63,916 nucleotides of DNA, filler included, from Asterionella formosa (GCA_002256025.1; 21 parts of 21 records of this genome joined end to end with filler, not necessarily neighbours in it), one strand, 5' to 3'; positions 5,688 through 57,482 are shown, counted from the whole stretch's first letter. Made by a program: numbers and translations. Notes: a model not told the origin generated them from the sequence alone.

Positions 5688-6243
5688 GTTGGAAATACTT
5701 TTTGAATTAGCGATAAATTGAACGTTTTCTTTCCTTGTTCTCTCAATGAAACTGCGCTTGACGAAAATGAGATGTGTCAACGATTAAAAGGCGAATGATG
5801 GGCAAGGAAGAGGGTGACACAATATGTATATGACGGTAGTTGTTTGTATTCAACAAATGGGAGTGACCACAAGAGAAAGATACATAAAAATTCTCGTCGT
5901 GCTTTTTTTCATTTTTCTTGTTAGTTATATATCATATGATACCACCGTATGATACCAGGTACCAGTACCGGGTATAGGAATTGTACATCATGTGTAAAGT
6001 AAAAAGTGATTCACCGTGTGCCGGTAGTGTCTACCGGTATGTACAAAGCTGATGGGAAGCACAAGAAGCGATTTGTTACCAGATGTACTGGTACCTGGTA
6101 CCATACTGTATTGAGAAACAGTCAGGACAATGATCACCATCAGGTCGCCATCATAACGACCTCCCCTTTTCCAACTTCATAGTGTAGCACCATTATCACG
6201 ACAAACCAGTTCTATTGTTATTTCCACACACTCTAACGCAATA

Positions 6244-6550
6244 ATGTTGACAGAAGAAGAAAAACTGGACGCCGAAAAAATAGCCAGAGCCAAGGCTGCC
6301 GGACGGGATGGGCGCCTATCCTTTCGTAATTTTGCTGAATCTCAAATCAGGCGTGAATTCAAAGATGCAGCGGTTGATGTTTGCAATCCATACATTCGAG
6401 AGTTTGCTGAGTGTGCACAAGATCAAGGCTTGATGGTTGTGTTTAACTGCCAAGGCAAAAGGAAGGCCATCAACGACTGCATGGCCATCCATAATAGCGA
6501 TGAAGCCTTTCAGAAGTACCTGCTGGCAAACCCAGATGAAGTAGCTAGCA
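6244..6550 (+). CDS. CMC1: twin CX9C mitochondrial COX assembly protein, CMC1-like (3' end in gap)
   Basis: C-NPYIREFAE-C ... GLMVVFN-C-QGKRKAIND-C twin CX9C pattern. Confidence 0.8.
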
Positions 6551-6970
6551 NNNNNNNNNNNNNNNNNNNNNNNNNNNNNNNNNNNNNNNNNNNNNNNNNN
6601 NNNNNNNNNNNNNNNNNNNNNNNNNNNNNNNNNNNNNNNNNNNNNNNNNNNNNNNNNNNNNNNNNNNNNNNNNNNNNNNNNNNNNNNNNNNNNNNNNNNN
6701 NNNNNNNNNNNNNNNNNNNNNNNNNNNNNNNNNNNNNNNNNNNNNNNNNNNNNNNNNNNNNNNNNNNNNNNNNNNNNNNNNNNNNNNNNNNNNNNNNNNN
6801 NNNNNNNNNNNNNNNNNNNNNNNNNNNNNNNNNNNNNNNNNNNNNNNNNNNNNNNNNNNNNNNNNNNNNNNNNNNNNNNNNNNNNNNNNNNNNNNNNNNN
6901 NNNNNNNNNNNNNNNNNNNNNNNNNNNNNNNNNNNNNNNNNNNNNNNNNNNNNNNNNNNNNNNNNNNNNN

Positions 6971-7898
6971 TGAATGGATCTCGCGTAGTCAAGCATCGCG
7001 GTTCCGCTTTCAAGAGCGCCTTGACTCCACCCTCCCATGTTCGATTTGTTTCAAGAGCCAGATGCAAGGGAAGTCGACCACTGATATCCGGAAAACAGGC
7101 TGCTTGGGGAAATATATCAAGCAATATTGTTAATGATAGCCAATCCATCTCCTCGTCGATTCCAGATGATGATGCACATAGAGATAGAGGAACTCGGCCA
7201 TTCCTATCCCTGACAGAAAGGTCTTCCTTGTAAATCATGGCGGCGAAGCGTAGGAATGAAGTCGGACAAGGCGTACTCGCAATTGCGTGCAGTTCTCGCT
7301 CTTGGTCTGAAGCACTCTTCACTAGTAACATGATTCGCTTCCATTGAGGCGAGCTTATAACTCGCTCCCTTCCAAAACAACCATGAATATGTAATAATGT
7401 GTCATCGTGTCTATCCCAAAGCAAAGAAACAGGAGAATTCCCTTTCATGTCGACTGTGAAACCTCCAGTGGGGTTAGCTATTAGAAGTGACTTCAAAATC
7501 TCCATCGGCAACGCCAGTCTTACAGCCCAATGCAGCGCCAATTCACCTTCGTCATTCCTCCCAGAAGCCAAGTCCGGAGAGGCAAATAACATCGCCTCGA
7601 CAACGTTTGCGGGGGCCCTGAAAAGGCAAGCGTGATGCAATGCGCTTTGACCTTCTCGGTCTACTAGCTCCGTGACCTGATCTGGTTCAAAGGCAATCCA
7701 ACTTAGTACTCGTTTCCATTTGCGAACCGCAATGGGCTCAAGGTGGTCGGGGGTCAAACCACCTCGTCGGCGAAGGACGGGTGCATGGGAATCTACGGAT
7801 TTTGGAAAAGTATAGCTTTGGTCGTCCAGGAGGGAAAATATCTGCGAATCAACAAGATTCGCCATGCTGCTGTTGTTGCTTATTTCTGAAGTGGACAT
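6971..7898 (-). CDS. ankyrin-like repeat protein (3' end in gap)
   Basis: Repeated G-x-x-(A/P)LH motifs: GQSALHHAC, GELALHWAV, GRVPLSLCA, GRLPLHLAL. Confidence 0.8.
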
Positions 7899-9164
7899 TT
7901 TGTCAGGACTACAGAATATTGAGTGGTCAATCGCAAAAGGCACGCGGCACAGTCAACGAACGTAACTCTGACTCGTACTTTCCTCACTATTCGCTGTCCA
8001 CCGCGAGCTAGATATAGATGAAAGTGAGGACTTGACCAGCCAGCCAGTGGAGAACCAGTAGATTAGCGTCGGTTTGGTTGCTTCAGATGATTTCGATAAT
8101 AACTGTATCCAGCAAGGATTTGTTCGGTTGCTTCCATTTAACTAGTAGTACAGGCAATGCATCCCGGATTTGTAATAAAATATTTGCACGAATATTTATG
8201 CCTTGTTCACAACAGTGGCTATTTTATTTTCATTCCTTGCTTTGTTCNNNNNNNNNNNNNNNNNNNNNNNNNNNNNNNNNNNNNNNNNNNNNNNNNNNNN
8301 NNNNNNNNNNNNNNNNNNNNNNNNNNNNNNNNNNNNNNNNNNNNNNNNNNNNNNNNNNNNNNNNNNNNNNNNNNNNNNNNNNNNNNNNNNNNNNNNNNNN
8401 NNNNNNNNNNNNNNNNNNNNNNNNNNNNNNNNNNNNNNNNNNNNNNNNNNNNNNNNNNNNNNNNNNNNNNNNNNNNNNNNNNNNNNNNNNNNNNNNNNNN
8501 NNNNNNNNNNNNNNNNNNNNNNNNNNNNNNNNNNNNNNNNNNNNNNNNNNNNNNNNNNNNNNNNNNNNNNNNNNNNNNNNNNNNNNNNNNNNNNNNNNNN
8601 NNNNNNNNNNNNNNNNNNNNNNNNNNNNNNNNNNNNNNNNNNNNNNNNNNNNNNNNNNNNNNNNCATGGCAATATGGTAGATGTGTTAAACGCATCCTTG
8701 TGCTCCTTCCCAACTGTGATGGGTATCCTTTACGTGGAAATCAGGTACTTACTTGCTAGTTGTAATCACTAGCACCACTTATTGTTAGCCTTCCTGCTAT
8801 CATAGATAAACTAATTGACTTTTCTGTCAATTAGCTAACACCTGTTTTTCAATTTCTGACCTATGCTTATTGTTTCCTTCACATGCATCTTTTGCTTATC
8901 ACAAGACATTTTTAGTGTCTCTTCGGATATCTAATTAACAGCTGGAATGTGATCTCTATCTTTCTCTATAGAAGTTGTCAATGTTCGATCTTGTTAGCCA
9001 GCTGATTGGCATGACATCAGTTGATTCAGAAGCAGTAGTAGTATATGGATCACAATTGGGGTTTGAAAATAGAACATTTGACAATTGAGCAAGGTTTAAG
9101 AGCATCAGAAAATTTTCCGATTCATAAATACAGCACAAAGGATAAAACCTCTAAAATAACGTTT

Positions 9165-9760: not shown

Positions 9761-10516
9761 AATGCTGTGAAAATTTTTACACCTCCTTTCCTATCAAGAA
9801 GTGAACCCCACCAAAATTCCGTTGCCCTTCTAGTAGCTTGATGGAACCTACTAGCTAGTAGCTCCTATATGGGCCATAGAACACAAAGGCTGCGACTCTA
9901 GAAATTGCCTAGTAAGAATTCACAATAAAAACGATGTATGTATATACTACCGGTATCTAACATCATTGTTACTAGCTAGGTGTAGTCATAAATCCTGGTT
10001 ACTAAGATAGAATTGTTCCTATGCCTAGTGACATTTTCAACAAGAACGATCAGCCACACATCAAATAATTATTTTGTACATACAGAGTAAAAAATATTAA
10101 GTGGATGTTGTCATGATCGCTCCAACTCTATTTACCGAAATTCGGAATTTGAGCGGACGCGTTCTTCTTTAGAAGAACGCACGCTTCTCAAAAGAATGGA
10201 TTTCTCAAAAGAACGACGCCAACGAACGCAAGATTTATGAGAAGCGAAGCGAAATCTGTGCAAACGATTCATAACAGCTATTTTACACGTAGCGTAGAAG
10301 TACCGGTACGGAGTTTCATGTTCCACCCATGTATGTTGACGATGACAACTGGGTGTATAATTACATTGTTTCTGTTTTTATTGGCCGGGAGGTGCAGCAC
10401 TGGATGACTATCCTTGTCAGACCCGTCACTATCGGGTACAAGTAACGAAGGCAAGAAGAAGCTTACAAAATTATTAAATCTATAGGCGTTGAGACTGCTA
10501 AGAAAGAAAAAACATA

Positions 10517-13843: not shown

Positions 13844-14924
13844 GATCAGTTTGAACGATGGGATGAGAAGGACGCTGATGATTGAGATAAGGTTTATCCC
13901 TTGATAATCGTTGTTGTGTTTGGTGCTGAAGCTTCGGGTTTATTCTTCTGACTGGGCGGGGATTGAAGGCTCCTTGTTGGAAAGGCAAGCAGGGAACGAA
14001 ACATGTAACTATCGTACCAGTTCATATGTACCGGTAGAATCTACCTGTACATTTCTACTTACGTAAACAATACAATTTCTAGTCGTACAACGAGCGCCAG
14101 AGAATGTGGAGTACTCCCGACATAATTAACAAGAAAGCACCGTGTGTCGTATGCAACGAATTCAGACTCTGCCTGCCGTGTGTTGTTTTGCTTATATACA
14201 TTTATGTTCGGGTATTTGTATATGTATATAGTCCACCCGGCTACGCGAAACAATCGCTTCAACTTCCATTTCAACATGACACTACCGGTATGTTGTACGT
14301 GGTACCTGGTACCTGGTATCTGGTATCTCGTATCTAGCACCTAGTCCTCGAGTCCTAACTGTCCTACATAACCAAACCAAACCATTAACCAAACCCCCTC
14401 CTGTACTCCCAAGTCACGCAGGAAGTATGTAGGATCATGCAGTAGCCAGCCAAACGTGGGTATGATTTACGACACTACCAGGTACTTACTACACGCACAC
14501 ACTTTCAAATTGAACACAGATTTATTACAATGTTTATTTTAGTATTCCAGTCAATTTTCAACATAATTCACCAGTACTACCTATCGTCTACCGGTGCCTA
14601 CCGGTATGTATGTGGGCTCGTCGTCACTTTTTGCGTTTTACAATCATATTCCGGTATGCTTCAGCTAATGGTGTGTATAGTATACTGACTCGTCCCACAT
14701 TAACCGGCTTGTACAAATGCAGGGTTTAGCCTGCTTGTTTGTAATCCATGTCACATCTGTAAATGTCGTATGTTTATGGTCCATTGTCCCATGGGAAAGC
14801 TTCCTTCAATAGTACCTCTTGTAAATCAGATGGCTTAGGAGGCACCTGCCATGAAAAACAAGGAAAACCACTTGCAATGTACTGGTAGCAAATTTTAAGA
14901 ATTACTGCACGTACATGTTCCCTA

Positions 14925-16407: not shown

Positions 16408-17398
16408 GGCTGCATCATTATTATCAGTTCGGAGCGAGGAAAGTGTAAAGGTGATGGCCGAGGAAAGTGATCTGCAAACGGGTGATGGGTATTACCCCTG
16501 TGCCCTATTACAGTTTACAGTTACTGTAATAGTGCAAGGCTTTTAAAATCAAAATGCAAGCTCTCGTCATTGCAATGAACCAGACACGAACCACCTGTAG
16601 ACAGACCCCCGATTGGTGTGATTCTAAAAGATTGTAGGGGTACATACCAGGGAGTAACAAGTATATGTAGCACCATGGCGACATCATGACATCGAGTGTC
16701 GAGGTTGACGGTTAGCGACATAATAGTTATACTTTACTTTTGAGTACCGGTACCGGTATATACCAGCCATAGTCTACTTATTACTACTACCAGGTACCTG
16801 GTACCAGGGTACGACCGGTAATAGACCCACAAGAAGGCGCTACATAATTACCGGAAGCCAATAACTAACTACCGGTAACACATCATATGTATGAGAAGAG
16901 GACGAAAAATTATAGGCAGAGGCAAAGCAGAGGCACTCCTACCTGTTCACAACCTGTCCCCCCCCGTCGCGCGTAGGATTCAAGGACCGAGGACACGCGC
17001 ACAACAACGACAATTATGATCGACATATTCAACTACGTATATTCACGCACCGGATTCTTACCGGTAATCTCTAAATGTACAGCAAAGGGCAATGTCGGCA
17101 ATTGGGAAACATTTAGCTATTTTTTCTCAGGACGAGTATAAACCGGTTTTACCGCACCTTGTTCTCAAGTACCACAGCAGCATGCATGCGATTGTGTGCT
17201 CCTGGACTCCCCCGCCTTGAGAATTGAATTCCTAGTCCGTTCAGTCGAATATCTTTGTTCGATGTTCGCACATCACGAACACCGGTATATTTTGTATCCA
17301 ACATTGTATATACAACATTTGCAACAGCGAGGACGGTCTGTTGCAACAACATTTGGAAGTATTTTAGAGTCTAGCAACCAAAGCCAACAGAACTGACC

Positions 17399-20805: not shown

Positions 20806-22645
20806 TCTTTACTGGTACNNNNNNNNNNNNNNNNNNNNNNNNNNNNNNNNNNNNNNNNNNNNTTAATTAATTAANNNNNNNNNNNNNNNNNNNNNNNNNN
20901 NNNNNNNNNNNNNNNNNNCAAAATGGGCTGAACAAGAAGAGAAATGCAGAGTATTGTTGTGGACTTCATGATTCGAAACTAAATGACACCTATAATACGT
21001 TCTTGAATGTTGCGGCCACTCATTTAAATATATATATATATATATTATGTTTGTGCACATACTATACAGATAAATAGTCTACTGCTTAATTAAAGTTCCG
21101 GCATTTAGGGGGGGGAAGAATTATTCTGAGCAATCAAACACACATTTCAATTGTAAAATAAACATGTAATAGTACTTTTAACAGAGCTTTCACCATTCAG
21201 CACTGTTTCCATATGATTTGATGCAGCTATTGGTCAAAGCACCTTCAGGGATGACAAGTTTCGGGGGTGAAACAGACAACAAGCAGACCTAAGGCCCTTT
21301 GGGGGGCCAATTAGTAAGACTTTATAACCTCCAAAAAACGTCGAGTTCTTTAACAAAAGCATACTCTAAATTTACTCAATGATTTAACTATAGTTTTTTC
21401 TTTGACCTGCATCTCTTGATTGTGCTGTTTGTTAACCAAGTATATGCTTGCTAGCTGGTGGCAGTCTCCTCTTATCAGTACGTTTGACATCAAAAATGAC
21501 AACTTTATGAAACCAAATAATACTCCCTGTCACAACATAGGGTCCACTGCATGGTGTCGGATGCAACAACTATGTTCATTTAGAGTCGATGCCACAATGA
21601 CCATTGTTATTGGCCTTGAGGACCATGACTAGTAGCCTTGTTTAACACTTGTCATTTTGCTTTGTGATGCTAATTTTTTTAGCAAGGCCTTTTATTCTTG
21701 TTTGTAGTCTGCTGATCTTGAATGCAAGATGATACTAATCCGGGTAAAGAAGGTAAAACCACCACTATGCTACAAGTAAGCAAAATTCAAGTAAATTCAA
21801 TCCAATAGCCCTAAACAATCAACATGTATCGCTATTTAGTGTTACTATACTTCCCAAACTATAAAAATCTAACCGAAATACCTGTTGCCTGCATGGTCTC
21901 GTTTCGGCTTTTTATTCAGCTTCTAATCACTGGTAGTGATGTAACTATACCGGAAAAGGTGAGAACTACTCCACTGTCCCTTAACGCTTTGCGAATGAGC
22001 ATGATATCCACATTGGCCATCAATGTTATTTATTCAAGGAACAAAGTTCGAGGCATGCAAAAAGATGAAGAAAAATCATGTTGACAAAAAATTGCAAGAC
22101 AAGGGTCCCCTATCTGCTCAGGTGGGANNNNNNNNNNNNNNNNNNNNNNNNNNNNNNNNNNNNNNNNNNNNTTAATTAATTAANNNNNNNNNNNNNNNNN
22201 NNNNNNNNNNNNNNNNNNNNNNNNNNNGCGAGTTTGCGGTCGTGAGAGACTGTCCGTCCCTCGTCCGTATCAAGTCGTAGCTTCTCTTGCTGGGTGGCAC
22301 TTTCTAGATTCGCTGGAAGAATGAAAATAACGCTGGCGAGTTTGACTTGATGATAGTCGTTTTTTGTTAAATTTTTGTTACCACAGTGGGCGCGCTCTGA
22401 TAATAAAAAATTATTATATCATGTGTGTTTTATAACACAAATTATTCTGGTGATCTGCTACATAATATCGTCCTTGCGCTCTGATAATAGAAATATTTTA
22501 GATTACTTCTCTGACATTAAATATATTTTTAACTTTAATTTTCAACAGTTGAATTTTCATATCGATGCATCCTCTTGTATGCTATGCCGCCTCTTGTTCA
22601 TTATATGCATGAGTTCTATATATTCATCATCGTCAGTCACTGACC

Positions 22646-23770: not shown

Positions 23771-24593
23771 CTACCGGTATTTGTTTTTATGAATGTGAAG
23801 TATTATCTCTGTTGTATAGATAATAGATAATGGTAGATGCAAGCAATGGCTTAATATAGTTGACAACCGGTATTATGACTCATAATGGGGTTTCAAGTGC
23901 TGGTGGTGAGATGACGTTATGATATCTGGAATAAGCAATGGAAATAATCGATCATCATGGTCGCTGCATTGATGCTGAGCGAGCGATGGTGTCTGCACAA
24001 ATGTACCAGTTAGGGTTAGGGATAGTGTTAAGGAATCAAATCATGCTGCCCCGCCCGCTGCCAGGAGGAATGGTGGTATACAAATGATTTACCAGTATTG
24101 TGCAGGAGTGAATCATGTATTTCTACGTATGCAAGTGGTATGATCGTACCATGGAACCAGGTACCAGGGCGCTATGTAGGCGCCTGGTACCAGTAGACCA
24201 CCCGGTTACTCCTGGAGCTATCTTGTACGTAGGAGCAGAAGCGGTCAGCGCTGAACCGCACAATCAAACAACAAGCAGTCCACAACATGTAATTGTAAAG
24301 TAAGTACCCGGTACCAGGTACCTCTGGTAAGTGCTGTACGTAAAATAGTGCAATCATACTAGGATCATACATACGTAAGCCCACTCTAGATAGTCTGCCG
24401 GTACCAGTACCCGGTAGTAGATTGTGTCATATACCCCGTAATGCTAAACTTGTAAGTATCGTTGCTACCCAGTACAGTACTGATAGTCTAGGTATTTGAT
24501 TCTCCGCCAGGTTACCGCTAAGCTAATAGTAGCAGTAAAAGCTAAAGCTAAATAAAGCAAAAGCAACAACAAGACAAGCAGCAAGGAGGAACG

Positions 24594-24743: not shown

Positions 24744-25848
24744 NNNNNNNNNNNNNNNNNNNNNNNNNNNNNNNNNNNNNNNNNNNNTTAATTAATTAAN
24801 NNNNNNNNNNNNNNNNNNNNNNNNNNNNNNNNNNNNNNNNNNNAGCTAGTATGTTGGGGAAATTCCATTCATTTTAGTATCCGAGATATTTCGTCTTTAC
24901 ATATTTGGTTACCGGTAACTTACACCATACCGGCAGTTGACCAAACAAGAAATGACCATCAGCGGGGGTAGTCCCTTCACTGGTCTTGGAAGAATTACAA
25001 CATTTCTGCATGCTGAGATTAGAAATTAAAAGTACGGCGTAGACGGATTGTACCCACGCACATGTGATGTCCCATTCATACATCGAATGACCTACACCAA
25101 CAAAAAGTGGGAAACCGCTTATGTCCACTTGCAAATTATTTAAAATGGTACTCCCTACCAGGGACCCGTTGCTTAATTTCGAGTCAATCACTACATAGGC
25201 AGTATCCTAAACATACACGAACCAAGTAGCAAGTACCTGGTACCGATACAATACCAAAAGCACTTTTGTTGAACTTTGTCTTGCCTCTGGTGAACAATGC
25301 AGAGAATTTTTGCACATATGTACCGGTAAGCGGCTGGTCATGCTGTTTCGTCATCGAATTCGAATGACTCCTTTAGGGTGACGGACAGTCATCGTGTGAT
25401 TGTTTGGGGTTCCCTCCCATCCACGAAAACATGATTGGACATTTTGCAAACACAAAATTTAATTCATAAAAATTATTTCTGTTTTTATCGGTGAAGAAAA
25501 CCATAAGGCATCAAAATGGAGCGTCATTGAAGGACATAAAAGTGTCACTTTCACCCTCATGCTACGACCTGCAATATGTACCGCGCAGAGAAACCACCGG
25601 TATTCGCTTTGCATCACTCTCCATCGCTTCTCCCAGACCAGATCGATCGTACAGGCACCACGTTGCTCACGTGCCAATGTATTCTTGTACTTTAGTGAAA
25701 TCCTTTTAAAAGTCATGAAACGTTATCCGAGGTCTTTGGTGTGATTCCAAAGAGTAAAACGATCATAAAAATGAAATGAACTCGATAAAATTAACTATTA
25801 TATACATATATTGATATATTCATTCGGCTTGGTCCAATTTTTTGCGAA

Positions 25849-34740: not shown

Positions 34741-35789
34741 TTCGGATAGTTTTCCGTTGGTGAATTATTGTTTGGAGTTGACAATCTGTGAACTGTACAC
34801 AAAAGATTTCGTCAAAGCAGGCTAGTATCGAAGATTTATGTACTAGTCTTACTTGGTTCAACAAATGGATGAAAACAAACTATAATAGTAGAAAGTAAGT
34901 TTGACAAGCACTTTGCCACGCATACCGGTTCCGTCCTATTTCCCTTTATTTTTGCTGTTGCTTTCAGCTGATGTTTCTGCTTTCGTTTTAGTGTAGAAAG
35001 GTACTTTACCCAATATTGCGATTGCATGCTGAACCACAAGGTGAAGGGCTTGAAGCGAGCAGCACTTTATAAGTTGAGGACTCCTATTTCAGCATGTATG
35101 CATGCAGTGCAGGTAAAGTTTACTAATATTATCGAGGCCTCTTCATGTACTGCAACCTGCCGAAACCTATCTAGATTGCGAACTGTATATGTAGACTACC
35201 AGTAGTCCAGTCTAACCTCTTCGTAGTAGCATACAACATGTGCTGAAGTACAATGTATCATGCTACTGTATGATGTATGTCAGTGCTATTTTTTGTCACT
35301 TGTTGCTTGCTACTCCGTACCAGTGTAGAAAACAGCTTCATACCAATCAGCCACGAGTCCAGGAATTCTCCCGACTTTCCTTCTCTCCGTAGGAGGAATC
35401 CATAATTTTGTACAGTACGTTGGCAACAGGAGAGTACATATCCCGAAATAGTATACACCAAACGGCAGTTATCTGGTGGTTAGTCTACATCATAGGTCGG
35501 TGATATGATTATACTGCAGGAGAAATGATATTGCGGGCAAGAGAAATACAGTAGTATACTGGTACACCATATTCACTTGGCGAACAGTTACGTATCATTC
35601 CAATATATTGAAATGGCAGTATACCAGTATACTGATACTGCTACCAAGAAAGCAGTATTCTTATTGTCACTCAGTATGCAGCAGGCAGTCATGGCAGCTA
35701 CTTAAGTGCTTTGGTTCTATTATGTTAATCTACTTGATCATCGTCCATTTCTTATGTGATAGTCCTACCCATTGCTTTACTGATCACAA

Positions 35790-37520: not shown

Positions 37521-38015
37521 GATTATCTAGGTGCAGCCGGGGTGGGTATTATTTAAGCTTGGTTCGAGTATGGGGATGGAGTAGGTATGTTATTTTACAT
37601 GGTCTACATAATGCTGTATATTAGGACTGTATTGATGTACCTGGTACTGTAGCATCACAGGAGTGGAATATTCCAAGTACATAATACTATGAATACTTAT
37701 GATGGCTGGACAGCTCCATACAACGGACTGACGTACGGACATTGTCTCGTGGACTTTTGGAGGGCACTTGACCATAAAAAATAGCTAGTAGAGGAAGCAC
37801 GCTGGTAAGTGCAGCCGCAAACGGTACAGTACGTGGTACGACTGTACCAGGTACCAGGTACCAGGTACAGCTAAGTGTATAGCAAGCACTATCATGCGCA
37901 AGAGTACCGGTACCTGGTACCACTTCATAACGGTACTATACGTAGGTAACTCGACAACAATCGACGCATTGCATTGCATTTCATTTCCATCAGGTAGGTA
38001 CGAGCAACTATAGCC

Positions 38016-39282: not shown

Positions 39283-39899
39283 TTGCAAACTGCATCACAA
39301 TCCACAATATTAGTCACTCATTCAATCAACGGTTGTTAAGCCAATCATTCACTGGTCTTTATTGACTGTTGGAGCGAAGCTGTTCGTGATGTAGTTCCTG
39401 TCGTGTTATTATTGCCAGATTGGTGTACTCTAAAAGGGGTTTGTAGATTCTGCCTATCTGCCGTTATTCCAATGTATATTATGACAATTTTTGAAAAAGG
39501 CACTAGGTCGGCGGTAGACGGCTATCATCTGCGCCTGAAAACCTTTCAGCTATTCCTCATAGTCATTTTTATGTTTTGAACACTAAGGTTTCACTAAACC
39601 CTTCCAAAAGAAGTGACCGAAAAGTGAGAACTCTACTGGTAACTCATTTTACGCGCTGCCTCGGGCACTATCTAATCTCTTGTGGTGGGAATCATAATGT
39701 GAAAAAATTCTTAATGAAATGTCGTTTTGCATTTTAAGCAGTCAAATAAACCCACGTTGTGACCAAGATTTAGCTGTCATCTCGATCAGCTGGTTCTCCT
39801 TTTCAGGTTGCCTACTGGCAATGCAATTGGCAAAATGCCAATGGCTTTCCAACTTGATCCCTTTGATCTACCCAGATCACAGGTGATAGAATTCTACAT

Positions 39900-40436: not shown

Positions 40437-40676
40437 TTTAGAGCTTAGAATGCAAGGAGGTGGGAACTTAACAGTGGGTCACGCTTGAGAGCAATGAATA
40501 GTTTAGCACAACAACACACAAGTGATACTAAATGATGGAAAAAATCGACACTGCCTCTCGGCAACATAGTCATAGACTTTATTCTATAGCTGATGCCTGA
40601 ATGGTGACATTAGGTACTAGTACAAGGTACCTTAGTACCTGGTACACACCAGGTAAGGAGTACCTGGTACTAACTA

Positions 40677-40761
40677 CCAAGCAAGTTGCTGAACTAAAGA
40701 TTTAGCTATCTTTATCCTAGATTAAATTGATGCTTTACGCAAAATGACCGCAACTTGCAGG
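40677..40761. mobile_element. MITE family A, copy 1 (partly deleted)
   Basis: TA|CCAAGCAAGTTGC...TTTAGCTATCTTTATCC...GCAAAATGACCGCAACTTGCAGG|TA; homologous to 49212-49308 and 55765-55905. Confidence 0.7.
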
Positions 40762-41457
40762 TATCGGTACCTGGTACCAAGTACATGGTACCCTGATATG
40801 AATGATATCGGTATCAGGTACTACCAGGTACCACCTAAAAACTGAAAGTCATCCTCATCTTCCCCATGCTTCGACCCAAATTACTTGAGTCCGATTGCAT
40901 GAGTATGAAGGTCATTGTAGCTACAAATAGGTCTGATTATAACTAGGGTGAAATTAACATTTCTTGAGAATGAAAGTTTCTAATGCCATCATTTTGCCTC
41001 ATAAGGATGACTCTCCATACATTGGTTTCTAATACAAAAATGAGGAGTTTTTAACCTGCCATTTTTCGATTACCCTAGCTATTATTGCAAGAAAAACTTT
41101 TTGATGCCATAATATTATTAGTCCATTACTGATTACTACCCGTTGATTATTAGCCCGCCCTTTCGAGGAAAAACCCATAATAATAGTCATTTTCGATGAT
41201 ACGCCACTATTAATATTTGGTTTTGTGTCAAATGCAACTACTAACTAACTTTGGTGATGCTATATTTAATATTCATTACAATTGCTGCTGGACAGCCTCT
41301 TGACAATCACCAATTGTTTGTATGTAATACCACTTGTTGCTTGCATCTTTGTTCTACTTGTTGCACTTTGCTACTTGTCATCATGTAGTACCATAGTTAC
41401 CTGTGTCCACTGGCAGAATACGCTGACAGGCATAACTTTTGTTCTTTAATTGTTTGT

Positions 41458-42651: not shown

Positions 42652-43836
42652 GATAATTTTAAATATATACTATGCAAAAAATGCATAATGTTGATGCAGC
42701 ATGATAAAATTTGAATTCTTACATTTTAAATGAGAAAGTGGACATTGACAATGAATGTTATAGGAATGATAACGAAATCGGGACCATTTCTTGTCACTGC
42801 AAACAAGTGTGAGTAATATGATTGTTGTGCACTGCTTTAATCATGCATATTCTCGAGTTCTGACTGGTAAGCACAATCAAAATGTGAAGCGGAACAATAA
42901 TAATTGAATAGAAATTAGGGACTCTTCCTTTCTTTATGTGGCAATACCAGCATAACTGAGAAACAAAACTTCCCCATTGCACTGTTGCGATTACTAGTTG
43001 GTCAACAAATATTGTTGCAACAAACACACATAATTATTCGATAAGTGATAAATGTTTTTTAGAAGACATAAATTTTTGTTCAAACCAAATAGATTTCCAA
43101 ACATGCTGTAGTATAAATACATCAATTTAGGCATAAATTCAAAAAAGTGGTGCAGTAGCTATGTGCTCAGCAACATTGATGACATTGTGTATTTTCCATA
43201 GTTGTGTATCAAGGTTTTGACTGTTGTTTAAATGATATAATGGAAGCAGTATTGACTCCTTCTGGTCCAGACTGATTGGTGTCTGTGGAACTGTTCATGT
43301 TGTGATTGGCACAGGTCTAAATATAAGTAGTTCAATTTTAGATCCATGTTCTTTGCCATGATGATGTACATCCACCTTTTTAGTCAGATGAGGAAGTAAT
43401 ATCCAACAATGCATATAAAGCTAAAGGAAGAAGACATGAAGGTTTGATATTGGGCCTCAAAGATACACTGAATTCAGCTTAATGAGTTGGCATGAATGGT
43501 AGTTTAATGCTGGTATAATAGTGCATTACTGGTAGTTGCATGGATGGAATACTGTACAGGTACAAAGGACATCAAAAGGGGCCCATAATCCATTCTTCTG
43601 CCGACTTCACATTTCCGCCCTGTCCTGCCATCATGCAAAGTATGTACAGAATTCCTGTGTAAACATACATACCGTTATAATTAGTATGTACGTGGGGGGG
43701 GACGTTGGGATGGTTTCGATCCCATGCATAAAATAATAAAAATCATCGATCTGCATTGATAAAACTGATAGACGAGAGTCTGAATACACAAGTGTGACGA
43801 GTCGTAACAAGTGTAATCCATACACAACTGCCAGAA

Positions 43837-46800
43837 ATGACTACGCCTCCCACGTCCGCCATGGCAGAATTGCACGTCAGCAAAGGAACGGGCAAGCGCG
43901 ATGCACTTCGTGCGAATGAGATTGCCGTACAGAAAATGTGGGAGGAGAAAAAGGCGTTTGAATCAGATGCGTCCGCTGCCGGAGACGAGAAATTCATTGT
44001 CACCTTCCCGTACCCCTATTCCAATGGCCATTTGCACATCGGCCATGCCTTTAGTTTGACAAAGGCGGTCTTTCGAGCACAGTATGAACGCCATCAAGGA
44101 AAGAACGTATTGTTTCCGTTTGCCTTTCACTGCACGGGCATGCCAATTCAAGCGGTACGTACCCTCTTTATTCCGCACACTACCGGTACTTTGAATTGAC
44201 CTGACCGGTATCATACAGAAATGCATTTTTGATGAATGTGTTCACTGTAGATCCTTCCAAACAACGCTGACACTTTTCTACTACTGATACTACTGAATAG
44301 GCCGCCAACAAACTCAAAAGTGAAATTGACCTCTATGGGTGTCCCCCTCAGTTCCCCGAAGACGACCCTTCTGTTCGTGCGGAAATGGAAGCCGACATTT
44401 TGGCCAAGGCCGAAGCCAAGGCTGCCACAGCCCTGCCGGACAAGAAAGCAAAAGGTAACAAGACCAAGCTTGTTCAAAAATCTGGGACTGGCATTGTCAG
44501 ACAGTGGAATATTTTGGCCAAAATGATTCCCATCGAAGAGATTCCTGCCTTTGTTGATCCACTCCATTGGCTCCATACGTTTCCACAAGTTGGAGTTACA
44601 CATATGAAGAAATTTGGATCTGGTGTGGATTGGAGACGTTCTTTTATTACCACTCATGTCAATCCATACTATGACGCCTTTATTCGCTGGCAATTCAATG
44701 TCCTCAAGAGCAAAAATAAGATTCTTTTTGGAAAGCGTAATAACGTATTTTCATTGTTGGATGGACAGGTTTGTGCAGATCATGATCGTTCAGAGGGCGA
44801 AGGGGTTGGAGCGCAAGAGTACGTATTGATTAAGTTGCAGGTGTTGGAACCAGACCATGGTCAAGCACGCCACGCCAAGATGCAAGCCTTGTTGAACAGA
44901 TTTCCAGATAAGCACATATACATGGTGCCCGCGACTCTTCGTCCTGAAACAATGTATGGACAAACTAACTGCTTTGTGCTTCCAACTGGAGAGTATGGTG
45001 CGTATTCTGTCGATGCTACGAACGAAATTTTTATCATGTCGGAAAGGTCAGCTCGTGGGCTCTCGTGCCAATTGTTTGATAAAGAAAACTATTTCATGAA
45101 GGAATTTGGAAAGATTGAGTGTCTCGAAACGTTTACCGGTGATGAATTGCTGGGCATTCCTGTCCGATGTCCTTTGGCCACTTACGAAAAAGTTTACACT
45201 TTGCCCTTATTGACCATTAGCATGTTTAAGGGAACCGGAGTCGTCACCTCTGTTCCTTCCGATGCTCCTGATGACTACATTGCCCTCAAGGCCCTTCAGG
45301 ACAAGCCGGACTTTGCTGCCAAATACGACATCACACCTGACATGGTTGACCCCTTCCACGTAGTACCAATTATTGAAATCGAAGGGTACGGTAATACAAG
45401 TGCTGTCTTCATGTGCGAAAAGCTCAAGATTCAGTCTTTCAACGACAAGGCAAAATTACAGGAAGCCAAAGATGAAACATATCTTAAGGGATTCAACTTT
45501 GGCATCATGACCATTGGGCCATATTCCGGAAAGAAAGTGTCGGAGGCCAAGCCAATTATCAAGCAAGAAATGATTGGCGCAAACCAGGCTCACCTATATT
45601 TTGAACCCGAATCTCGTGTTGTGTCAAGGACTGGAGATGAATGTGTTGTCGCGGCCACAGATCAGTGGTATTTGTCATATGGAGAAGAGTCTTGGTCGCA
45701 ATTGGTCAAGGATCATGTCTTGGATGGAGCCAGATTCAATGCTTACGACCCCAACGCGCTAAGCAAGTACGAGTACACAATTGGTTGGTTAAAGGAGTGG
45801 GCGTGCACTCGCCAATTCGGACTCGGAACTTTTTTGCCTTGGGATCCAGTGTGGGTCATTGAGTCCTTGAGTGACTCAACGATTTATATGGCATACTACA
45901 CTATTGCTCATGTGTTGCAAGGGGTCGACAATCTAGAGGGGGAGTCTGCGAAGTCACCTGGAAAGATTAATCCCGAGGATTTGACCACTGAAGTCTTTGA
46001 TTACATTTACCGAAATGGGGTTTTGCCTGAGACTCCCATCGCCACCGAAACTCTTGACAAAATGAGAGCTGAATTCCGATACTGGTATCCTATGGACTTG
46101 CGCGTATCTGCGAAGGATTTGATACCTAACCACTTGACAATGGCTCTATTCAACCACGCTGCCATTTGGGAAGATGAGCCGGAGTTGTGGCCTAAAGGTT
46201 ACTACTGCAATGGTCATGTCTTGGTTGACGCTGAGAAAATGTCGAAGTCTAAGGGTAACTTCTTGATTATGAACGAGACCATTGATATGTACACTGCTGA
46301 TGCCACTCGATTTGCGTGTGCTGATGCTGGGGACTCTTTGGACGACGCAAATTTCAGCCGAGAGACCGCAGATTCTGCAATCATATCACTAAGTAACGAG
46401 GAGACCTGGATCAACGAAGCGGTGGCTTCTAGCAGTCTCAGAACGGAAGGCGAACTCAACTTTATGGACCAAGTGTTGATTAATGAGACTAACAGTCTCG
46501 TTGAGGCGACCGGTGTTTCCTTCGCGACAATGCAGTTCCGAGAGGGCCTTCAACATGCATGGTTCGAAATGATGATAGCTCGAAATGACTATCGTACTTG
46601 GTGCCAAGATAGTTCAACACCAATGCACCGTGATGTGTTGCGGAAGTGGTGCGAAGCGTTGGTCATTCTCATTTGCCCCGTCTGCCCTCATTGGTAAGTA
46701 ATACTGTCTATTGTAATCCGTGAACCATTGTTGTTGCTGTGTATAGGCTTATCGAAGTGCCTCCTTGTTCTCAGGTCTGAAAAGATTTGGAAGGCACTTG

Positions 46801-48745: not shown

Positions 48746-49211
48746 GAAAAGGAATTGACGCAAAGTCAGGAGGTGCAACACCAAAACAAAAAAGACCGAG
48801 ATCTATGCACTATTGGGTGAGAAAAAGACAAGATGCTATAAAAGGGTCACTTTATGGCTCTTGCCATCAGTTTGTTCAATGGTCGGATGTACACTGGCAT
48901 ACATAAAGAATACCGGTGGTATGTATGAAGTCGATAAAATGAGTCTATACGAAGCATTCGCCGATGAATATAATGCATGCATATAGAAGGGACAGTACTT
49001 AGACAATGGTACCAGGTACTGTGCAATGTAACTAACTGGTACTCCGAGTACATGGTAACTTGTACAAGGTACCACGGTACCGTAATGACCAGCAGACCAT
49101 ACATCATGCCAATTATTTTTAAAATTTATCATTCAGGCACAACTAATTTCGTACCTGAAGGTAATATTATATACCATCTCATCATCTGATCGAATTACAC
49201 CGGTAATGGTA

Positions 49212-49308
49212 CCATGTAAGTTGCGGGAATTGTGCTAAAACTAAAACTTTAGCTATCTTTATCCCATATTAAATTGTTTGTTTAAGCAAAATGACCGCAA
49301 CTTGCAGG
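49212..49308. mobile_element. MITE family A, copy 2 (97 bp, TA-flanked)
   Basis: TA|CCATGTAAGTTGCGG ... CCGCAACTTGCAGG|TA imperfect terminal inverted repeats. Confidence 0.75.
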
Positions 49309-49310
49309 TA

Positions 49311-49538
49311 CTGGTTTGTTGAAATACCGGTATGGTGGCGCTTCGTCTTCCTATCGCGCTCCGGTACTGCCATGGAATGACCGGTCAAGATCTTTCTGTC
49401 GCCACTATTTTCCATATAAATCTGCTATGTTCATACTGTCTATGATTTCCATTTAGACATTCCTCAGACTACATCTAGTTTTCGGACACCTGTCGACATC
49501 AACAGCCTAACTGACGCATTCTGACACGAGTTTACCTG
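49311..49538. repeat. dispersed repeat family B, copy 1
   Basis: Reverse-complement homologue of 56616-56827; shared GAATGACCGGTCAAGATC and TTCGGACACCTGTCGACATCAACAG. Confidence 0.8.
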
Positions 49539-50946
49539 NNNNNNNNNNNNNNNNNNNNNNNNNNNNNNNNNNNNNNNNNNNNTTAATTAATTAANNNNNN
49601 NNNNNNNNNNNNNNNNNNNNNNNNNNNNNNNNNNNNNNAATTAAATAGGAATCGGCGCCAGATTGATAGAGTTCCATTTCAAACAAATAAAAATGATATT
49701 CAAACGCTATATGTTTATCCTCATTGCTGGAAGTAGATTTGATTTTGCCAAACGCCAAAATACATACCGGTTTTTTCAAATAGAGAGTACTGGTATACCA
49801 ACATGTACGCTCATGGTTCGTGTTTATACGTCATATTGAATCTACGTTGCTGAATGCAGGTAAAATGTACCTAAACGTACAAAGGTATATATGAAAATCA
49901 GCTCCCGGTACCGGAGTACCAGAGTCCCAGTACACCGGTACCTGGTACCAGGTGCCTAGTAGATTATCTTCGTTCATGTTGATAGAAGAGATGATGAAAC
50001 GACCGATACCCTGGTATCAGGTTCCGGTAATACTAATTTTACCTACCGGTATGGAGTACATCTAATACATTTGGTTCAAGTTTGGCTGGCGTGATTTTAC
50101 AAGACCGGAATACTTCAGCCAATCTGGAGCAGGTGAGAAAATTCAATTTAACCAATCAGAATACGTGCAATGACGCGGCAACTAACCCTGGAGTACCCTA
50201 TAAAGTTATCCCTCGTAGACTTTTTAAAAAGCTTTATAGCCCCCTTTTTTCACTATTTTTTGGATAGTTACGATTCCAAGAGGGATAACTGCAGTTTCTC
50301 TCCGGAAATGAGGTCCTTGTCATATCCAAAGTGGTCATAATGGTGAAAGCTAATTTTACCTGTAACTATTTTATTTACTTGTACGTAATGTGTCGTTTAT
50401 GGTGCATCATAAAATTATTTTGGGAAAAAACGGACCTCCTATTGTGAAACTGCGGGGCCGCAACCTTGAGCAACACTAATTTTATAAATTTAATAGATGT
50501 CATGTAATTTAATTAATCAACAAAGACACCATTTTTATCTCTAATGGCAAGAATATTATTATCACTAGCTATACTCATGGAATAATGCTTTTCATCACTT
50601 GTAAATGACTTGCGCAATGGCATCTAATCATAATTAGGTTAACAATCATTACATCTCTACTTAGTTCTTGTTATTACCTAGCTAATTCCCTCCAGTTGTA
50701 GTTGTATGCTACATTAATCCTATTTCAGTCAGTTCACGCCGTTGGCACAACACATTTGCGAGAGGTCGCCTAAACCCGTTGCTGGTGACAACATCGAGAA
50801 TAATTTGCCGAATCTGTGAAGTACCTTGTACTAGATCCAACTTCCTNNNNNNNNNNNNNNNNNNNNNNNNNNNNNNNNNNNNNNNNNNNNTTAATTAATT
50901 AANNNNNNNNNNNNNNNNNNNNNNNNNNNNNNNNNNNNNNNNNNNN

Positions 50947-51760
50947 GTCTCCAAACAGAATTGTGCCCGGTTGCCAAGAAATTTGGTTTTGCCATTCCTT
51001 TCTAGTTGCATTAGAGTTTCCAATACTTTCACAATTGTAAATGGCCCACATGACCATCCACTATCATCTTCTGGTTTAAAAAACATGGAATTATGTTCAG
51101 TGGCCATAATGATCTGCAATGGTGCTTTGGTGCCAGTATAGAAAGATTCCGATAAACCAATTTCTTCAGGTGTATGGTTTTTTCGTGGAAGATATCCTGT
51201 ATCGGTGCTTAACAATTCCAATTGTTTCGTGCATCCAGGGATGATGCAGTACCAGTACTTACGGGCAAGTTGAAATACTTGATCATAATGTTCATCCAAA
51301 CTTGCATCTTTTCCTGGATCACGGACTTGACATAATCCATCATTTATAGCAAAAAGATAATGCACAAAATGGTTGTTTTCCTCCTCATCTGATCTTTTGC
51401 AATAAACAATTAGCACATACAGTAGTTACTGTCATCAGGAAGTGGATGACAATCACCTTGGTATATATACGGTTTGTCATTACCCTTTTCTGGTTTCTCA
51501 TCCAGATCAAATAAAACCTTTACATCAGTTGGATGAAGTTCATGAATTATATAATGGATCACAGAGCACGGTAATTGTTTCAAGGTCCCAATATGCAAGA
51601 TCATTAAAATCTGAAGATGATTTTTTGATACCTTTGACTCCATAAAATACAGAGGCGTAATTGCATATTTCTTGTGCGGTACGTGTGTACAAATCTTTCC
51701 ACAATTTTAGTTGTCCATACGTTTTCGGCAAACTCAAGGAAAATGCAGTTTGCTTTGGCA
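50947..51760 (-). pseudogene. broken ORF, possibly a transposon-borne Ulp1/C48 protease-like remnant
   Basis: Three overlapping frame-shifted ORFs. NHFVHYLF and DDSGWSCGPF resemble the His and Cys motifs of C48 proteases. Confidence 0.3.
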
Positions 51761-54934: not shown

Positions 54935-55764
54935 AGTCTGCGAAACGAGAACAATCATAGTCAGATAGCTACCATCACATGATGTGAGTTCATAAGATCA
55001 AATTGGTAGTCTGTGGCGGGCGCAGGTTCATTGTCGGTAGTTTGCTTGTTGATGCCATGCGAAATTACAGAGATCTATTCATTTACATTGTACGTAGTAT
55101 TGGAGCAAACTGCCTGCGATGCATGATTGGAAATACATGATCGTTCACTTACCTTGAATGCAGGAAATTGGTAAATTTGATAGATTATGGGAACATGTTA
55201 TAATTAAAATCAGAAAGCAACTGAAGTGTCGCTCATATTTTGTTGTTGCTTTGATGATGGCTTCGCGGCTTCGCATTCATTCAAAGGTTTTCCATCATAC
55301 CAAGTCAGATTCATCGGCGACACCTATTCTTCAGAACCACATATATTACTGCCATAAAAACCAGTATTCATTGACATCCCTATTCGAAGGTTCGTTGAGC
55401 ATATTGCCCACATGATATCTTCAGCATTCCCATTCATTTGATGGAGTGCTTCTCATTTCAATTTTTTTTCTAGCAGGCAAAGGTGAGTATTACCAGTACC
55501 GGTATTCCATATAATTTGAACGATGATCGTGTGAGGAAACATTTTCCACGTCATGATCAAAAACAGTGATTTTTTTATATACAGAAATATCTTAGATGAT
55601 GATAACATCACAAAGGGGTATTCGTATATGAATATGTGTATGGCTAATCCATTGTCATTTAAACACCCGGAGATACCGCCATCTATACCGGTACCGGTAC
55701 TCGAAATAATTAGCAATTCTGCACAGTATTCCTCTGGACCCATTGCTGATGACGAGAAGCGATA

Positions 55765-55905
55765 CCTGCAGGTTTTTGCGGTCATTTTGCTGGTACCTTG
55801 TATGTACGAGCAAGTTCCAGTCATTTGGCTTAAATCAACAAATTAATTAAGGATAAAAACAGCTAAACCTTTAGTTTCAGCACAATTACCGCAACGACCT
55901 GCAGG
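55765..55905. mobile_element. MITE family A, copy 3 (inverted, with internal insertion)
   Basis: TA|CCTGCAGG..TTGCGGTCATTTTGC...GGATAAAAACAGCTAAA...CCGCAACGACCTGCAGG|TA. Confidence 0.7.
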
Positions 55906-56615
55906 TACCAGGTACTATGCATACAAATACCGGTACCAGTACCGGTAGGCAGCTGCGTTCACACGAGGCGAGAAACAGTCCTCGTCGCTCAGCCACATCC
56001 GGGCCCTTTTGTCGGCGTGTTCGGATGAGGAGAAAATCGTTCTATCGCTCTTCGTTCCGGCCATTCAGTATTCCTNNNNNNNNNNNNNNNNNNNNNNNNN
56101 NNNNNNNNNNNNNNNNNNNTTAATTAATTAANNNNNNNNNNNNNNNNNNNNNNNNNNNNNNNNNNNNNNNNNNNNACACTAAAGAGCCCGGAGAATTCTC
56201 ATTTTGATGTAGCAGGCAGTGGTCTGGGAGTTCGCTTATTGCTAGCCTTCCACGATGTTCCCGACGATTCTAACTACAATACCCGTAGTACAATTCTCTT
56301 TTGCTTGCTTCTTGCCTCCTAATCACGATTAATGGCTCTTGGATGTTCATTCGAAATGATTTACGGTATGCATGTACACATATAGGCATGTACGATGTAC
56401 CCATGAGTAGTACTTTATGTTCCATACGTAACTTATGTACACCTACTTTGTACTGTGTTATGTTGATGTTTTTCGACTACCGGTAGACGTACAGTAGTTT
56501 GTATGATTGAGATGATGTTACCCCCAGGTACCTGGTACCAGGTACCCTGATACCAGTTACCGGTATGTATTTACCGGTTCGTTAGTACTTGGTACGTAAA
56601 ATTTTGATGATTGGT

Positions 56616-56827
56616 CTTGTGTTCAGGTATGTCAGAGTGTGTCTGTTAGACTGTTGATGTCGACAGGTGTCCGAAGACTAGGTAGTCTGAGGAGTGTCTA
56701 AACGGAAATAGACAGGATTTATACAGCAGAAGAATCTGCAGACGAGCGGCGTGAGAACGATCTTGACCGGTCATTCCTGGGCAGTACTGGAGCGTGCTAG
56801 AATAGGCGCCATATATTTCAACACAGG
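56616..56827. repeat. dispersed repeat family B, copy 2 (possible MITE)
   Basis: Homologous to 49311-49538; weak terminal inversion CTTGTGTTCAGGTAT / ATATTTCAACACAGG. Confidence 0.75.
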
Positions 56828-57482
56828 TACCGGTACCTGGTACTCCTTACCAAGTACCAGGTACCACGACCAAGCTGCTGGGCCGGTGTCAACAAAGCAA
56901 TTCTATTTTATTCACTTCCCTGTCACACCTTACCAGTACTGTATCTATTTATTAACTCTGTATATTCCAAGGTACTTACTATACACAACTTCCGCTATGG
57001 TACAGGTCGTTACTCGCAATTCCTTCCCTCCTTGTCATGTGGATGTGAACCTGCAGGCGCTGGCGGACCAAAATGCCCTGTGCAGGATGTTCGCTGACTG
57101 CCTTGATTGCACCTGGTACCTGGTACCTGATCCTACCTACTATGTAAATATTCAAAATTTACTCCTAATTATCTAATAATCATTCAGCATTTATGTAGTA
57201 TGTACTTGTAGGGGCAACCCAGTACCAGGTACTACATAGATGTCGGTAATGCATATATCCGGGAAACTCATGGCAAGACGGTACATACATAGGGTACATG
57301 CTCCGCATTCATTTGAACATCATTTTTCAATCTTGTATGCTTCGCGTTATTACAGCATATTGGTCTTGTGGTACCTGGTACCNNNNNNNNNNNNNNNNNN
57401 NNNNNNNNNNNNNNNNNNNNNNNNNNTTAATTAATTAANNNNNNNNNNNNNNNNNNNNNNNNNNNNNNNNNNNNNNNNNNNN

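Follow-up and report, generated by a model that had tools for sequence, protein, structure and literature searches.

In a 63,916-base stretch of DNA from the diatom Asterionella formosa (GCA_002256025.1), referred to here as the window, the non-coding sequence is saturated with palindromic words in which a core of four or five letters, such as CCGG or CC(A/T)GG, is bounded on both sides by the dinucleotide TA. The units are insertions of a core plus TA at a TA site, and are probably excision footprints of TA-targeting elements of the Tc1/mariner type. The candidate source is an abundant, non-coding miniature inverted-repeat transposable element (MITE) of ~86 bp that is flanked by TA and whose inverted ends carry the same CC and GG letters.

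Saturation of the non-coding DNA had been proposed in an interpretation made from the letters of the window in isolation (the sequence-only reading), and the over-representation which it observed is confirmed. All five of its words were found, each of the 12 clusters that it named contains one to eight TA-bounded arrays, and a chain placed near 37845–37870 is present exactly at 37844–37868. Every word also fits its parse into TA, core and TA. Arrays were delimited as TA(core TA)n with CCGG, CCAGG, CCTGG, CCAG or CTGG as the core, which yielded 82 arrays with 97 units and 780 bases in all. The units consist of TACCGGTA (core CCGG, 37 occurrences), TACCTGGTA (CCTGG, 18), TACCAGGTA (CCAGG, 16), TACCAGTA (CCAG, 14) and TACTGGTA (CTGG, 12), and the hexamer GGTACC occurs 58 times. 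Single units make up 69 of the arrays (84%), with 11 double and two triple arrays. In 100 dinucleotide-preserving shuffles the expectation for TACCGGTA was 0.26 (standard deviation 0.46) and that for the nine-letter form TACCWGGTA, observed 34 times, was 0.31 (standard deviation 0.60); no shuffle reached 37 or 34, respectively. The k-mer enrichment held also against a third-order Markov model, which predicted 2.1 and 1.2 occurrences. GGTA directly abuts the half-word TACC on its 3′ side in 37 cases and follows it after one intervening letter in 39, compared with 0–11 cases at spacings of 2–15 letters and an expectation of 1.5. Among all TA...TA words, these have no equal once simple AT repeats are set aside, together with the linker that joins the pieces of the window (see below).

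The words are not an assembly artefact: they recur in three independent DNA runs and are abundant in independently assembled metagenome contigs. The arrays at 37844–37868 and 37905–37922 draw dozens of contigs from the three DNA runs, with unrelated flanks and a loose-end consensus agreement of no more than 0.34–0.43; in one run (X2), 32 contigs have loose ends at 37844 and 55 at 37868 (agreement 0.34–0.39). Public runs containing the stretch are labelled as algae, freshwater or lake-water metagenomes, and the words are abundant in, and spread over, many independent contigs. The metagenome set comprised 118 loci that matched a 17-letter MITE-end pattern: 20 with real MITE copies, one with a MITE end and units, and 97 that are chance matches to the pattern. 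The 97 unrelated loci (110.6 kb) contain 0.063 units per kb, whereas the 21 loci with MITE sequence contain 5.6 per kb, redundant sequences included.

Stop-to-stop open reading frames (ORFs) of at least 200 aa (19,179 bases), which are no more than a stand-in for coding sequence, were compared with the remaining 39,698 bases. None of the 71 TACCGGTA or TACCWGGTA words (37 and 34, respectively) lies within these ORFs, in agreement with the rarity in coding sequence claimed by the sequence-only reading. The ORFs likewise contain no GGTACC and a single TACCAGTA/TACTGGTA word, compared with 58 and 25 outside them. A few units are present in ORFs of 130–199 aa; in our own reading these ORFs are without Pfam support, and overlap repeats or are antisense to real exons. 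Of the 26 sequence pieces, 16 carry units. Unit density is ~2.4–2.9 per kb of non-ORF DNA, with up to nine arrays per kb, and ~7% of non-ORF TAs sit within units. Clustering is about twice that obtained by random placement on the 2,485 non-ORF TAs: 26 gaps are ≤100 bp, compared with 13.7 ± 3.0 and a maximum of 24 in 2,000 simulations. The words are frequent upstream of ATG codons, as had been claimed, but this position is not specific. In a small sample, units lie also in an intron that a joint in an RNA contig demonstrates (44181), at a transcribed 3′ end (39634) and in the 3′ spacer between convergent genes (31293); the RNA evidence consists of contigs. As separate observations on composition, GTAC occurs at 7.4 per kb outside long ORFs and 1.8 per kb inside (~4-fold), no trinucleotide is more over-represented in non-ORF DNA than GTA/TAC, with the units explaining just part of this excess, and TACATA/TATGTA is found 78 times in the window compared with 38.9 expected.

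How the units arise was examined by comparing occupied with unoccupied sites. Each array was cut out with one TA kept, and the resulting 38-mer was sought with ≤4 mismatches. Thirteen matches were obtained; three are self-overlap artefacts and the other ten represent five distinct filled sites, each paired with a plain-TA counterpart that has near-identical flanks of 18 nt. Within the window, the filled site at 58415 is matched at 58485 without mismatch in 38 positions, the empty TA lying at 58503–58504 in the next copy of a tandem repeat. Other pairs come from a single locus that is represented in different metagenome assemblies by L042, L116 and L072, which are almost identical outside the arrays: L072-494 is filled and L042 empty (0 mismatches), L042-963 is filled and L072 empty (1 mismatch), and L116-462, equivalent to L042-465, is filled and L072 empty. 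The site L072-822 holds two units and is matched by five MITE copies in which it is empty. In an alignment of L042/L116 with L072 (alignment A3), ~9–10 unit-level indels were counted by eye over ~540 shared columns, together with ~5 substitutions and two other indels. For example, GGAC-TA-(A/G)CGG stands opposite GGAC-TA-CCGG-TA-GCGG, and GATGA-TA-CTCTC opposite GATGA-TA-CCGG-TA-CTCTC. The motif GCA[TA]TT[TA]TTTG has two neighboring TAs, and CCGGTA follows the first of them in one haplotype but the second in the other; the two TAs were hit independently. At this locus, variation between individuals is greater for the units than for ordinary point mutations.

The direction of change was read from repeat families, whose consensus marks three cases as insertions. 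Inside the MITE, seven other copies read GCT-TA-AAC where L072 reads GCT-TA-CCAGG-TA-CCGG-TA-AAC. In the tandem repeat, the adjacent copy has a plain TA and the third copy, in our own reading, likewise. In the repeat at 49325, GAAA-TA-CCGG-TA-TGG corresponds to GAAA-TA-TATGG in a paralogue near 56805–56822 (minus strand) and in six metagenome sequences of one locus. Copies without a unit outnumber those with one in both the tandem repeat and the abundant repeat. The filled/empty pairs and the polarity of the repeat families together demonstrate that units are insertions of core plus TA at a TA. An empty site has a single target TA, whereas a scar has one on each side, and an insertion of core plus TA is what a TA target duplication would leave if it outlasted the departure of the inserted thing. 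Birth by TA-regenerating insertion, which the sequence-only reading had proposed, is thereby supported, and its parse of the words reflects a mechanism. In addition, other TA-bounded cores, TA-TGA-TA and TA-CA-TA, are visible inside the MITE copies of L042, L116 and L072, and may be scars of other element families.

The transposon origin suggested by the sequence-only reading fits the structure of the resident MITE, which is TA|CC(T/A)GCAAGTTGCGG...CCGCAACTTGC(A/T)GG|TA around a core of 86 bp. Three copies are present in the window (Table), and contig depth over them far exceeds that of neighboring single-copy DNA. Among 16 ends from eight independent copies, examined in our own reading, CC(T/A) precedes GCAAGTTGCGG exactly at nine, with one to three extra letters at four, and is absent at three; the TA flank is present at ten. 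CC(T/A) is kept at three ends flanked by CA or GA. The CC and GG letters belong to the MITE and not to the target duplication because they are inverted relative to each other, the palindromic TA being the target duplication. The element is Stowaway-like in that it is short and non-coding, has terminal inverted repeats and a TA duplication, and has copies in 20 metagenome loci; its arm presumably resembles mariner-family repeats. The letters found between the TAs of the units are the terminal letters of this MITE: two letters from each end give CCGG (37 seen), three plus two or two plus three give CCWGG (34 seen), and the untrimmed three plus three form, CCTAGG, occurs once, within an array in L060. 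A sub-family with CCGGCAAG ends in L078 and L070 would yield CCCGG/CCGGG cores, of which there are five occurrences in the window. A scan for other TA-flanked inverted-repeat elements that start with TACC (16-nt arms, ≥12 matches) returned 11 pairs, ten of them word against word and one the MITE; six control end-pairs gave none and the reversed pair gave seven. Four matches to the MITE-end pattern in viral contigs are assumed to be chance. MITE ends also adjoin units: in our own reading, three of the 16 abut a canonical unit and three more a degenerate one. In three DNA runs (17–29 contigs each), the consensus of the loose ends at the right edge of MITE copy 2 continues with CAGG after ...GCAGGTAC, which indicates that many MITE copies abut a unit.

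These observations suggest a scheme in which cut-and-paste Tc1/mariner elements, including Stowaway-like MITEs, would convert a plain TA to TA-CCGG-TA or TA-CC(A/T)GG-TA. Insertion would duplicate the TA, excision with a stagger of 2–3 nt would leave two or three terminal letters of the element on either side (CC or CCW from one inverted end, GG or WGG from the other) between the TAs, and end joining would seal these leftover letters. Each footprint would then offer two TAs for the next insertion, and heterogeneous chains would form as a consequence. Homogeneous runs could be lengthened by replication slippage or by re-hopping in the same orientation beside the donor site, and either selection or an insertion bias toward open DNA would exclude units from coding sequence. 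Lastly, CpG transition would turn CCGG into CCAG or CTGG.

The CCAG and CTGG cores, which the sequence-only reading had listed as cores in their own right, fit the TA-bounded parse but are better read as decay of CCGG by CpG transition. This reading is adopted because, among the single-substitution neighbors of TACCGGTA, the two transition products alone are abundant (TACCAGTA 14, TACTGGTA 12), with the other 22 of 24 at five or fewer, and because CCAG stands opposite CCGG in one aligned array of alignment A3. The CpG observed/expected ratio is 0.74, and those of TG and CA are 1.22–1.26. Joining of three letters from one end to one from the other was also considered for CCAG/CTGG and was set aside in favor of CpG transition, the two readings not being fully separable.

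Iteration at regenerated TAs, as envisaged in the sequence-only reading, would account for part of the chains. About half of the links are heterogeneous (24 of 47 differ) and mix four- and five-letter cores, as predicted for repeated independent events. However, independent events alone would not produce so many homogeneous runs, and this is among the points that weigh against the footprint interpretation. Fifteen adjacent links are seen where random TA targeting of 97 units predicts 3.8. Adjacent units are identical in six of 15 pairs in the window and in 17 of 32 at non-redundant metagenome loci (23 of 47 overall), compared with an expected fraction of ~0.27, and by hand count 20 of 26 CCWGG-CCWGG pairs are identical where half would be if A and T were random. 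Part of the array growth is therefore not independent insertion. The excess of homogeneous runs fits either slippage or same-orientation re-insertion at an element's own scar TA, two routes that are not separated here; the latter would also explain why MITE ends often abut units. Further points concern the element itself. No transposase Pfam domain was found in window ORFs of ≥75 aa (scans of 27, 36 and 87 ORFs), and none of three orthologous or paralogous sets holds the element in one copy and its footprint in another. With three MITE copies to 97 units in the window (~1:30), each copy must have moved many times unless additional families contributed, and cores of four to five letters lie at the top end of the published 2–4 bp. 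A second orthologous set (six sequences, ~1.1 kb, few units) showed just substitutions and simple indels. Finally, the chain GGTACCWGGTACCWGGTACC is present in at least 110 prokaryote contigs from many phyla, and period-7 arrays of this kind mean that arrays alone are not diagnostic of footprints. Joints and indels listed from contig mapping included none that precisely removes a MITE and no indel inside a word array, which is uninformative either way. As a separate observation, a sub-threshold match to the hAT dimerisation domain (35795–36007, minus strand, E 0.018) lies in a repeated region, 35196–37760, with a depth of 2–9 times baseline; the region may be a decayed hAT element.

The distribution of the units also bears on whether they are selected cis-regulatory or epigenetic words, that is, palindromes bound by a dimeric factor through TACC half-sites 0 or 1 letters apart, or CCGG/CCWGG methylation targets, kept in promoters by selection, which is regarded as unlikely. 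The absence of TACCGGTA/TACCWGGTA units from long ORFs and the twofold clustering are in keeping with such a role, as are strict palindromy with two spacings only and clusters that lie upstream of several genes (ArsA-like, globin-like, HSF-like and AhpC-like) at distances of no more than a few hundred bases. Yet sites are gained and lost between near-identical haplotypes faster than substitutions, and units are born by insertion instead of by substitution toward a consensus. This presence/absence polymorphism argues against strongly conserved sites. Units also occur in an intron, a 3′ untranslated region, a convergent spacer and repeats. Moreover, the CpG decay products are common (26 compared with 37 intact words), which suggests no strong constraint. 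Secondary exaptation of units as regulatory sites may occur.

Insertion directed to TA could in principle proceed without a mobile element, through a domesticated TA-cutting transposase or nuclease, or through repair of the hairpin type with its added palindromic letters. The palindromic form of the cores would be compatible with hairpin opening too, and the lack of both a transposase in window ORFs of ≥75 aa and an excision event favors this route, together with the ~30:1 excess of units over MITE copies. Nevertheless, the cores keep the letters CC...GG in every flanking context, unlike hairpin P-nucleotides, and the same letters end an abundant TA-flanked MITE. The route is accordingly judged improbable.

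Replication slippage as the primary process, in which a GGTACC(W) microsatellite with a unit of six or seven letters would grow, shrink and degenerate without any transposon, is very improbable even though it is favored by the surplus of identical neighbors. Tandem Repeats Finder reports period-7 arrays at 14295, 29593, 37844 and 56524, and (GGTACCW)3 arrays in the at least 110 prokaryote contigs are homogeneous in 93 of the 110 listed and stand beside other period-7 arrays. These prokaryote chains are ordinary period-7 repeats with the same letter at both W positions in those 93 matches, their flanks are GC-rich and bacterial, and they mostly form one array per locus (1–4). The same loci hold 39 further exact heptamer arrays, which belong to 33 other classes, compared with seven arrays of period 6 or 9. 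The chain GGTACCWGGTACCWGGTACC was found in none of 2.9 million viral contigs. In the alga, by contrast, the 69 single units among 82 arrays, the units at naive TAs, where no repeat is available for slippage and some of which lie in MITE and repeat copies with a unit-free consensus, and the differing neighbors with four- against five-letter cores all oppose primary slippage. In contrast to a microsatellite, the units of an array are not always identical and change is not confined to existing arrays; secondary slippage is supported. It is the single units at naive TAs that set the alga apart from the prokaryote repeats. On the prokaryote side, period 7 alone is common in the sampled loci: in L123–L232, drawn from several phyla, 122 of 129 exact arrays (≥3 copies, periods 5–9) have period 7, distributed over 34 heptamer classes, often side by side and in some cases in long hairpins (L228, L127).

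It is scarcely credible that the words came first and that MITEs prefer them as targets, the end match then being a target-site effect, since CCW is attached to GCAAGTTGCGG even with a non-TA flank and no nearby unit and the origin of units at naive TAs is left unexplained, notwithstanding the MITE ends that abut units, the many copies followed by CAGG, and the ~7% of non-ORF TAs within units.

The footprint interpretation agrees with known chemistry. Stowaway excision scars are described as containing relic end residues (PMC3660474), and Tc1/mariner footprints are given as 2–4 bp (PMC7913693). As in the accounts of these systems, the TA in the diatom is duplicated and kept on both sides, with a few end letters between the TAs (PMC3660474; PMC7913693), and a TA-flanked MITE with matching ends is present in the same alga. 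Unlike those cases, the units here are chained, reach the density given above, dominate the differences between haplotypes at one locus, and have cores of four to five letters; no transposase was seen among the window ORFs scanned. At the level of listings and abstracts, the open-access literature yielded no description of the word family or of a genome-wide build-up of footprints.

Other short repeats offer partial parallels. HIP1 is a highly iterated octamer palindrome of cyanobacteria that is strongly over-represented genome-wide, occurs in genes too and is not known to be insertion-born. The analogy with HIP1 drawn by the sequence-only reading stands for the word statistics but not beyond them: the diatom words are absent from long ORFs (0 of 71), TA-bounded and insertion-born, and have eight- and nine-letter forms. 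Micro- and minisatellites, among which the cyanobacterial STRR heptamers can be counted, share head-to-tail units of 6–7 bp and homogeneous runs of variable copy number. They differ from the diatom arrays, of which 84% are single, in which unit lengths are mixed and which are born at plain TAs. Yeast mitochondrial GC clusters, the ultra-short mobile GC-rich palindromes of organelle genomes, also lie in AT-rich spacers and have a duplicated target; the diatom case is nuclear, and its cores of four to five letters are too short to be recognized as elements.

The window itself, 5,039 bases of which are N, consists of two gapped scaffolds (1–19509 and 30076–49538) and 19 short contigs of 1206–1209 bases each. 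The pieces are joined by an identical six-frame-stop linker of 44 N, TTAATTAATTAA and 44 N, and the paired 44-N runs around TTAATTAATTAA recur at ~1308-base intervals in 19510–30075 and 49539–62710. Neighbors in the window are therefore possibly not neighbors in the genome. Gene content is eukaryotic and nuclear by Pfam: an M3 peptidase, LeuRS, an HSF-type factor, a helicase-associated (HA) domain protein and a rhomboid are encoded, as are an ArsA/GET3-like ATPase, a globin and others. A nuclear origin follows from these genes and from GT..AG introns that are confirmed by RNA contigs; HSF and HA domains are typical of diatoms. Coordinates of the units and MITE copies are collected in the Table.

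Table. TA-bounded units, arrays and MITE copies in the window. Features are unstranded (.) unless a strand is stated; strands in brackets are those of the neighboring gene or ORF.
Position	Strand	Feature	Context
5953..6100	.	3 arrays, 5 units (TACCAGGTACCAGTA; TACCGGTA; TACTGGTACCTGGTA)	between minus-strand ORF and Cmc1-like ORF at 6157
9948..9955	.	single unit TACCGGTA	
10301..10308	.	single unit TACCGGTA	
14029..14606	.	5 arrays, 6 units, including TACCTGGTACCTGGTA at 14303	
14880..14887	.	single unit TACTGGTA	
16745..17066	.	4 arrays, 6 units (CCGG-CCGG; CCAGG-CCTGG; two singles)	
20810..20817	.	single unit TACTGGTA	contig end
23772..23779	.	single unit TACCGGTA	
24090..24409	.	4 single units and GGTACC words	
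24910..24917	.	single unit TACCGGTA	
25234..25328	.	2 single units	
26536..26587	.	2 single units	
26844..27019	.	5 arrays, including abutting TACCAGGTA and TACCGGTA	
29594..29713	.	4 arrays, 5 units	
30292..30417	.	3 single units	upstream of AhpC/TSA-like ORF (30552, +)
31293..31300	.	single unit TACTGGTA	spacer of convergent AhpC-like (+) and CBS (-) ORFs
32687..32901	.	3 single units	
35197..35204	.	single unit TACCAGTA	
35557..35629	.	2 single units (CTGG, CCAG)	repeated region
37638..37919	.	3 arrays, 6 units: TACCTGGTA; CCAGG x3 at 37845-37867; CCGG-CCTGG at 37905-37919	just upstream of ArsA-like transcript; arrays common to dozens of contigs from other loci, flanks unrelated
39634..39641	.	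single unit TACTGGTA	3′ end of globin-like transcript; covered by RNA contig
40636..40830	.	4 single units	around MITE copy 1
40675..40763	.	MITE copy 1: TA + CCAAGCAAGTTGC ... CCGCAACTTGCAGG + TA	internal deletion
43527..43534	.	single unit TACTGGTA	upstream of LeuRS-like gene
44181..44188	.	single unit TACCGGTA	in GT..AG intron 44154-44299 of LeuRS-like gene
46080..46087	.	TACTGGTA	in LeuRS-like coding ORF; possibly chance (Markov ~2 per window)
49010..49018	.	single unit TACCAGGTA	upstream of HSF-like gene (-)
49210..49310	.	MITE copy 2: TA + CCATGTAAGTTGCGG ... CCGCAACTTGCAGG + TA	37-nt arms, 78% complementary
49325..49332	.	TACCGGTA	inserted in copy of very abundant repeat
49788..50051	.	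3 single units	
51250..51257	.	single unit TACCAGTA	
55491..55947	.	4 arrays, 8 units (CCAG-CCGG; CCGG-CCGG; CCAGG; CCGG-CCAG-CCGG)	around MITE copy 3
55763..55907	.	MITE copy 3: TA + CCTGCAGG ... CCTGCAGG + TA	composite, two left ends
56478..56565	.	3 arrays, 4 units	
56828..57380	.	6 arrays, 7 units	
57893..58089	.	3 single units	57893 unit is edge of ~62-bp indel relative to 93%-identical contig 63212-63915
58415..58422	.	filled site, TACCGGTA	in one copy of 82-92-bp tandem repeat
58570..58577	.	single unit TACCGGTA	
63692..63748	.	2 single units	common to 93%-identical contig at 58033-58089

Several other repeats are present in the window. The contigs at 52255–53462 and 61404–62610 are 99.8% identical over 1208 bases, and each starts with six copies of a 25-bp unit (52255–52405 and 61404–61554) that run into a 263-aa ORF with no Pfam match. 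The contigs at 57483–58253 and 63212–63915 are 93% identical, as alleles or recent paralogues; the ~62-bp indel between them starts at TACCGGTA. A repeat of ~180 bp is found at 49351–49526 and 56630–56800 and in L016, L038, L042, L062 and L076, with ends that have no CCW/TA structure. Depth in the bin 49047–49538, which covers this repeat, is 35,882 in X2 compared with ~80 for single-copy sequence, and 16,725 in a poly-A RNA run. The region 42378–42890, with a contig depth of 5,936 in X2 and joints that skip 134–139 bases, is a dispersed or tandem repeat. Tandem repeats of 82–92 bp (~3 copies, 58136–58537) and 198 bp (3.6 copies, 60599–61303) were also noted. A tRNA scan of the whole window found none, and an Rfam scan of 34170–49538, which includes the high-depth region at 42378–42890, gave no match.

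The chemistry of TA-transposon footprints is already known; it is the scale, the chaining and the dominance among haplotype differences at a hot locus that appear to be new. Tentatively, and with rather more doubt than attaches to the footprint origin of the units, a very active TA-targeting cut-and-paste system might write scars at ~3 per kb of non-coding DNA that outnumber substitutions at hot loci, with re-hopping laying down arrays unit by unit. If so, CCGG, CCWGG and GTAC sites and hairpin-prone palindromes would be created continually in promoters, as raw material for regulatory or epigenetic exaptation. Confirmation would provide a countable record of past cut-and-paste activity that is independent of surviving copies, would explain a genome-wide palindrome without selection, and would furnish a natural system for end joining after transposon excision and for local re-hopping. 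It would also counsel caution in motif-discovery and methylation studies of diatoms, in which such words would be mutational products. Excision scars are usually seen as rare curiosities of single loci; here they are apparently a major and ongoing mutational force that shapes the word statistics, the promoter-proximal sequence and a large share of the haplotype differences of a widespread freshwater alga.

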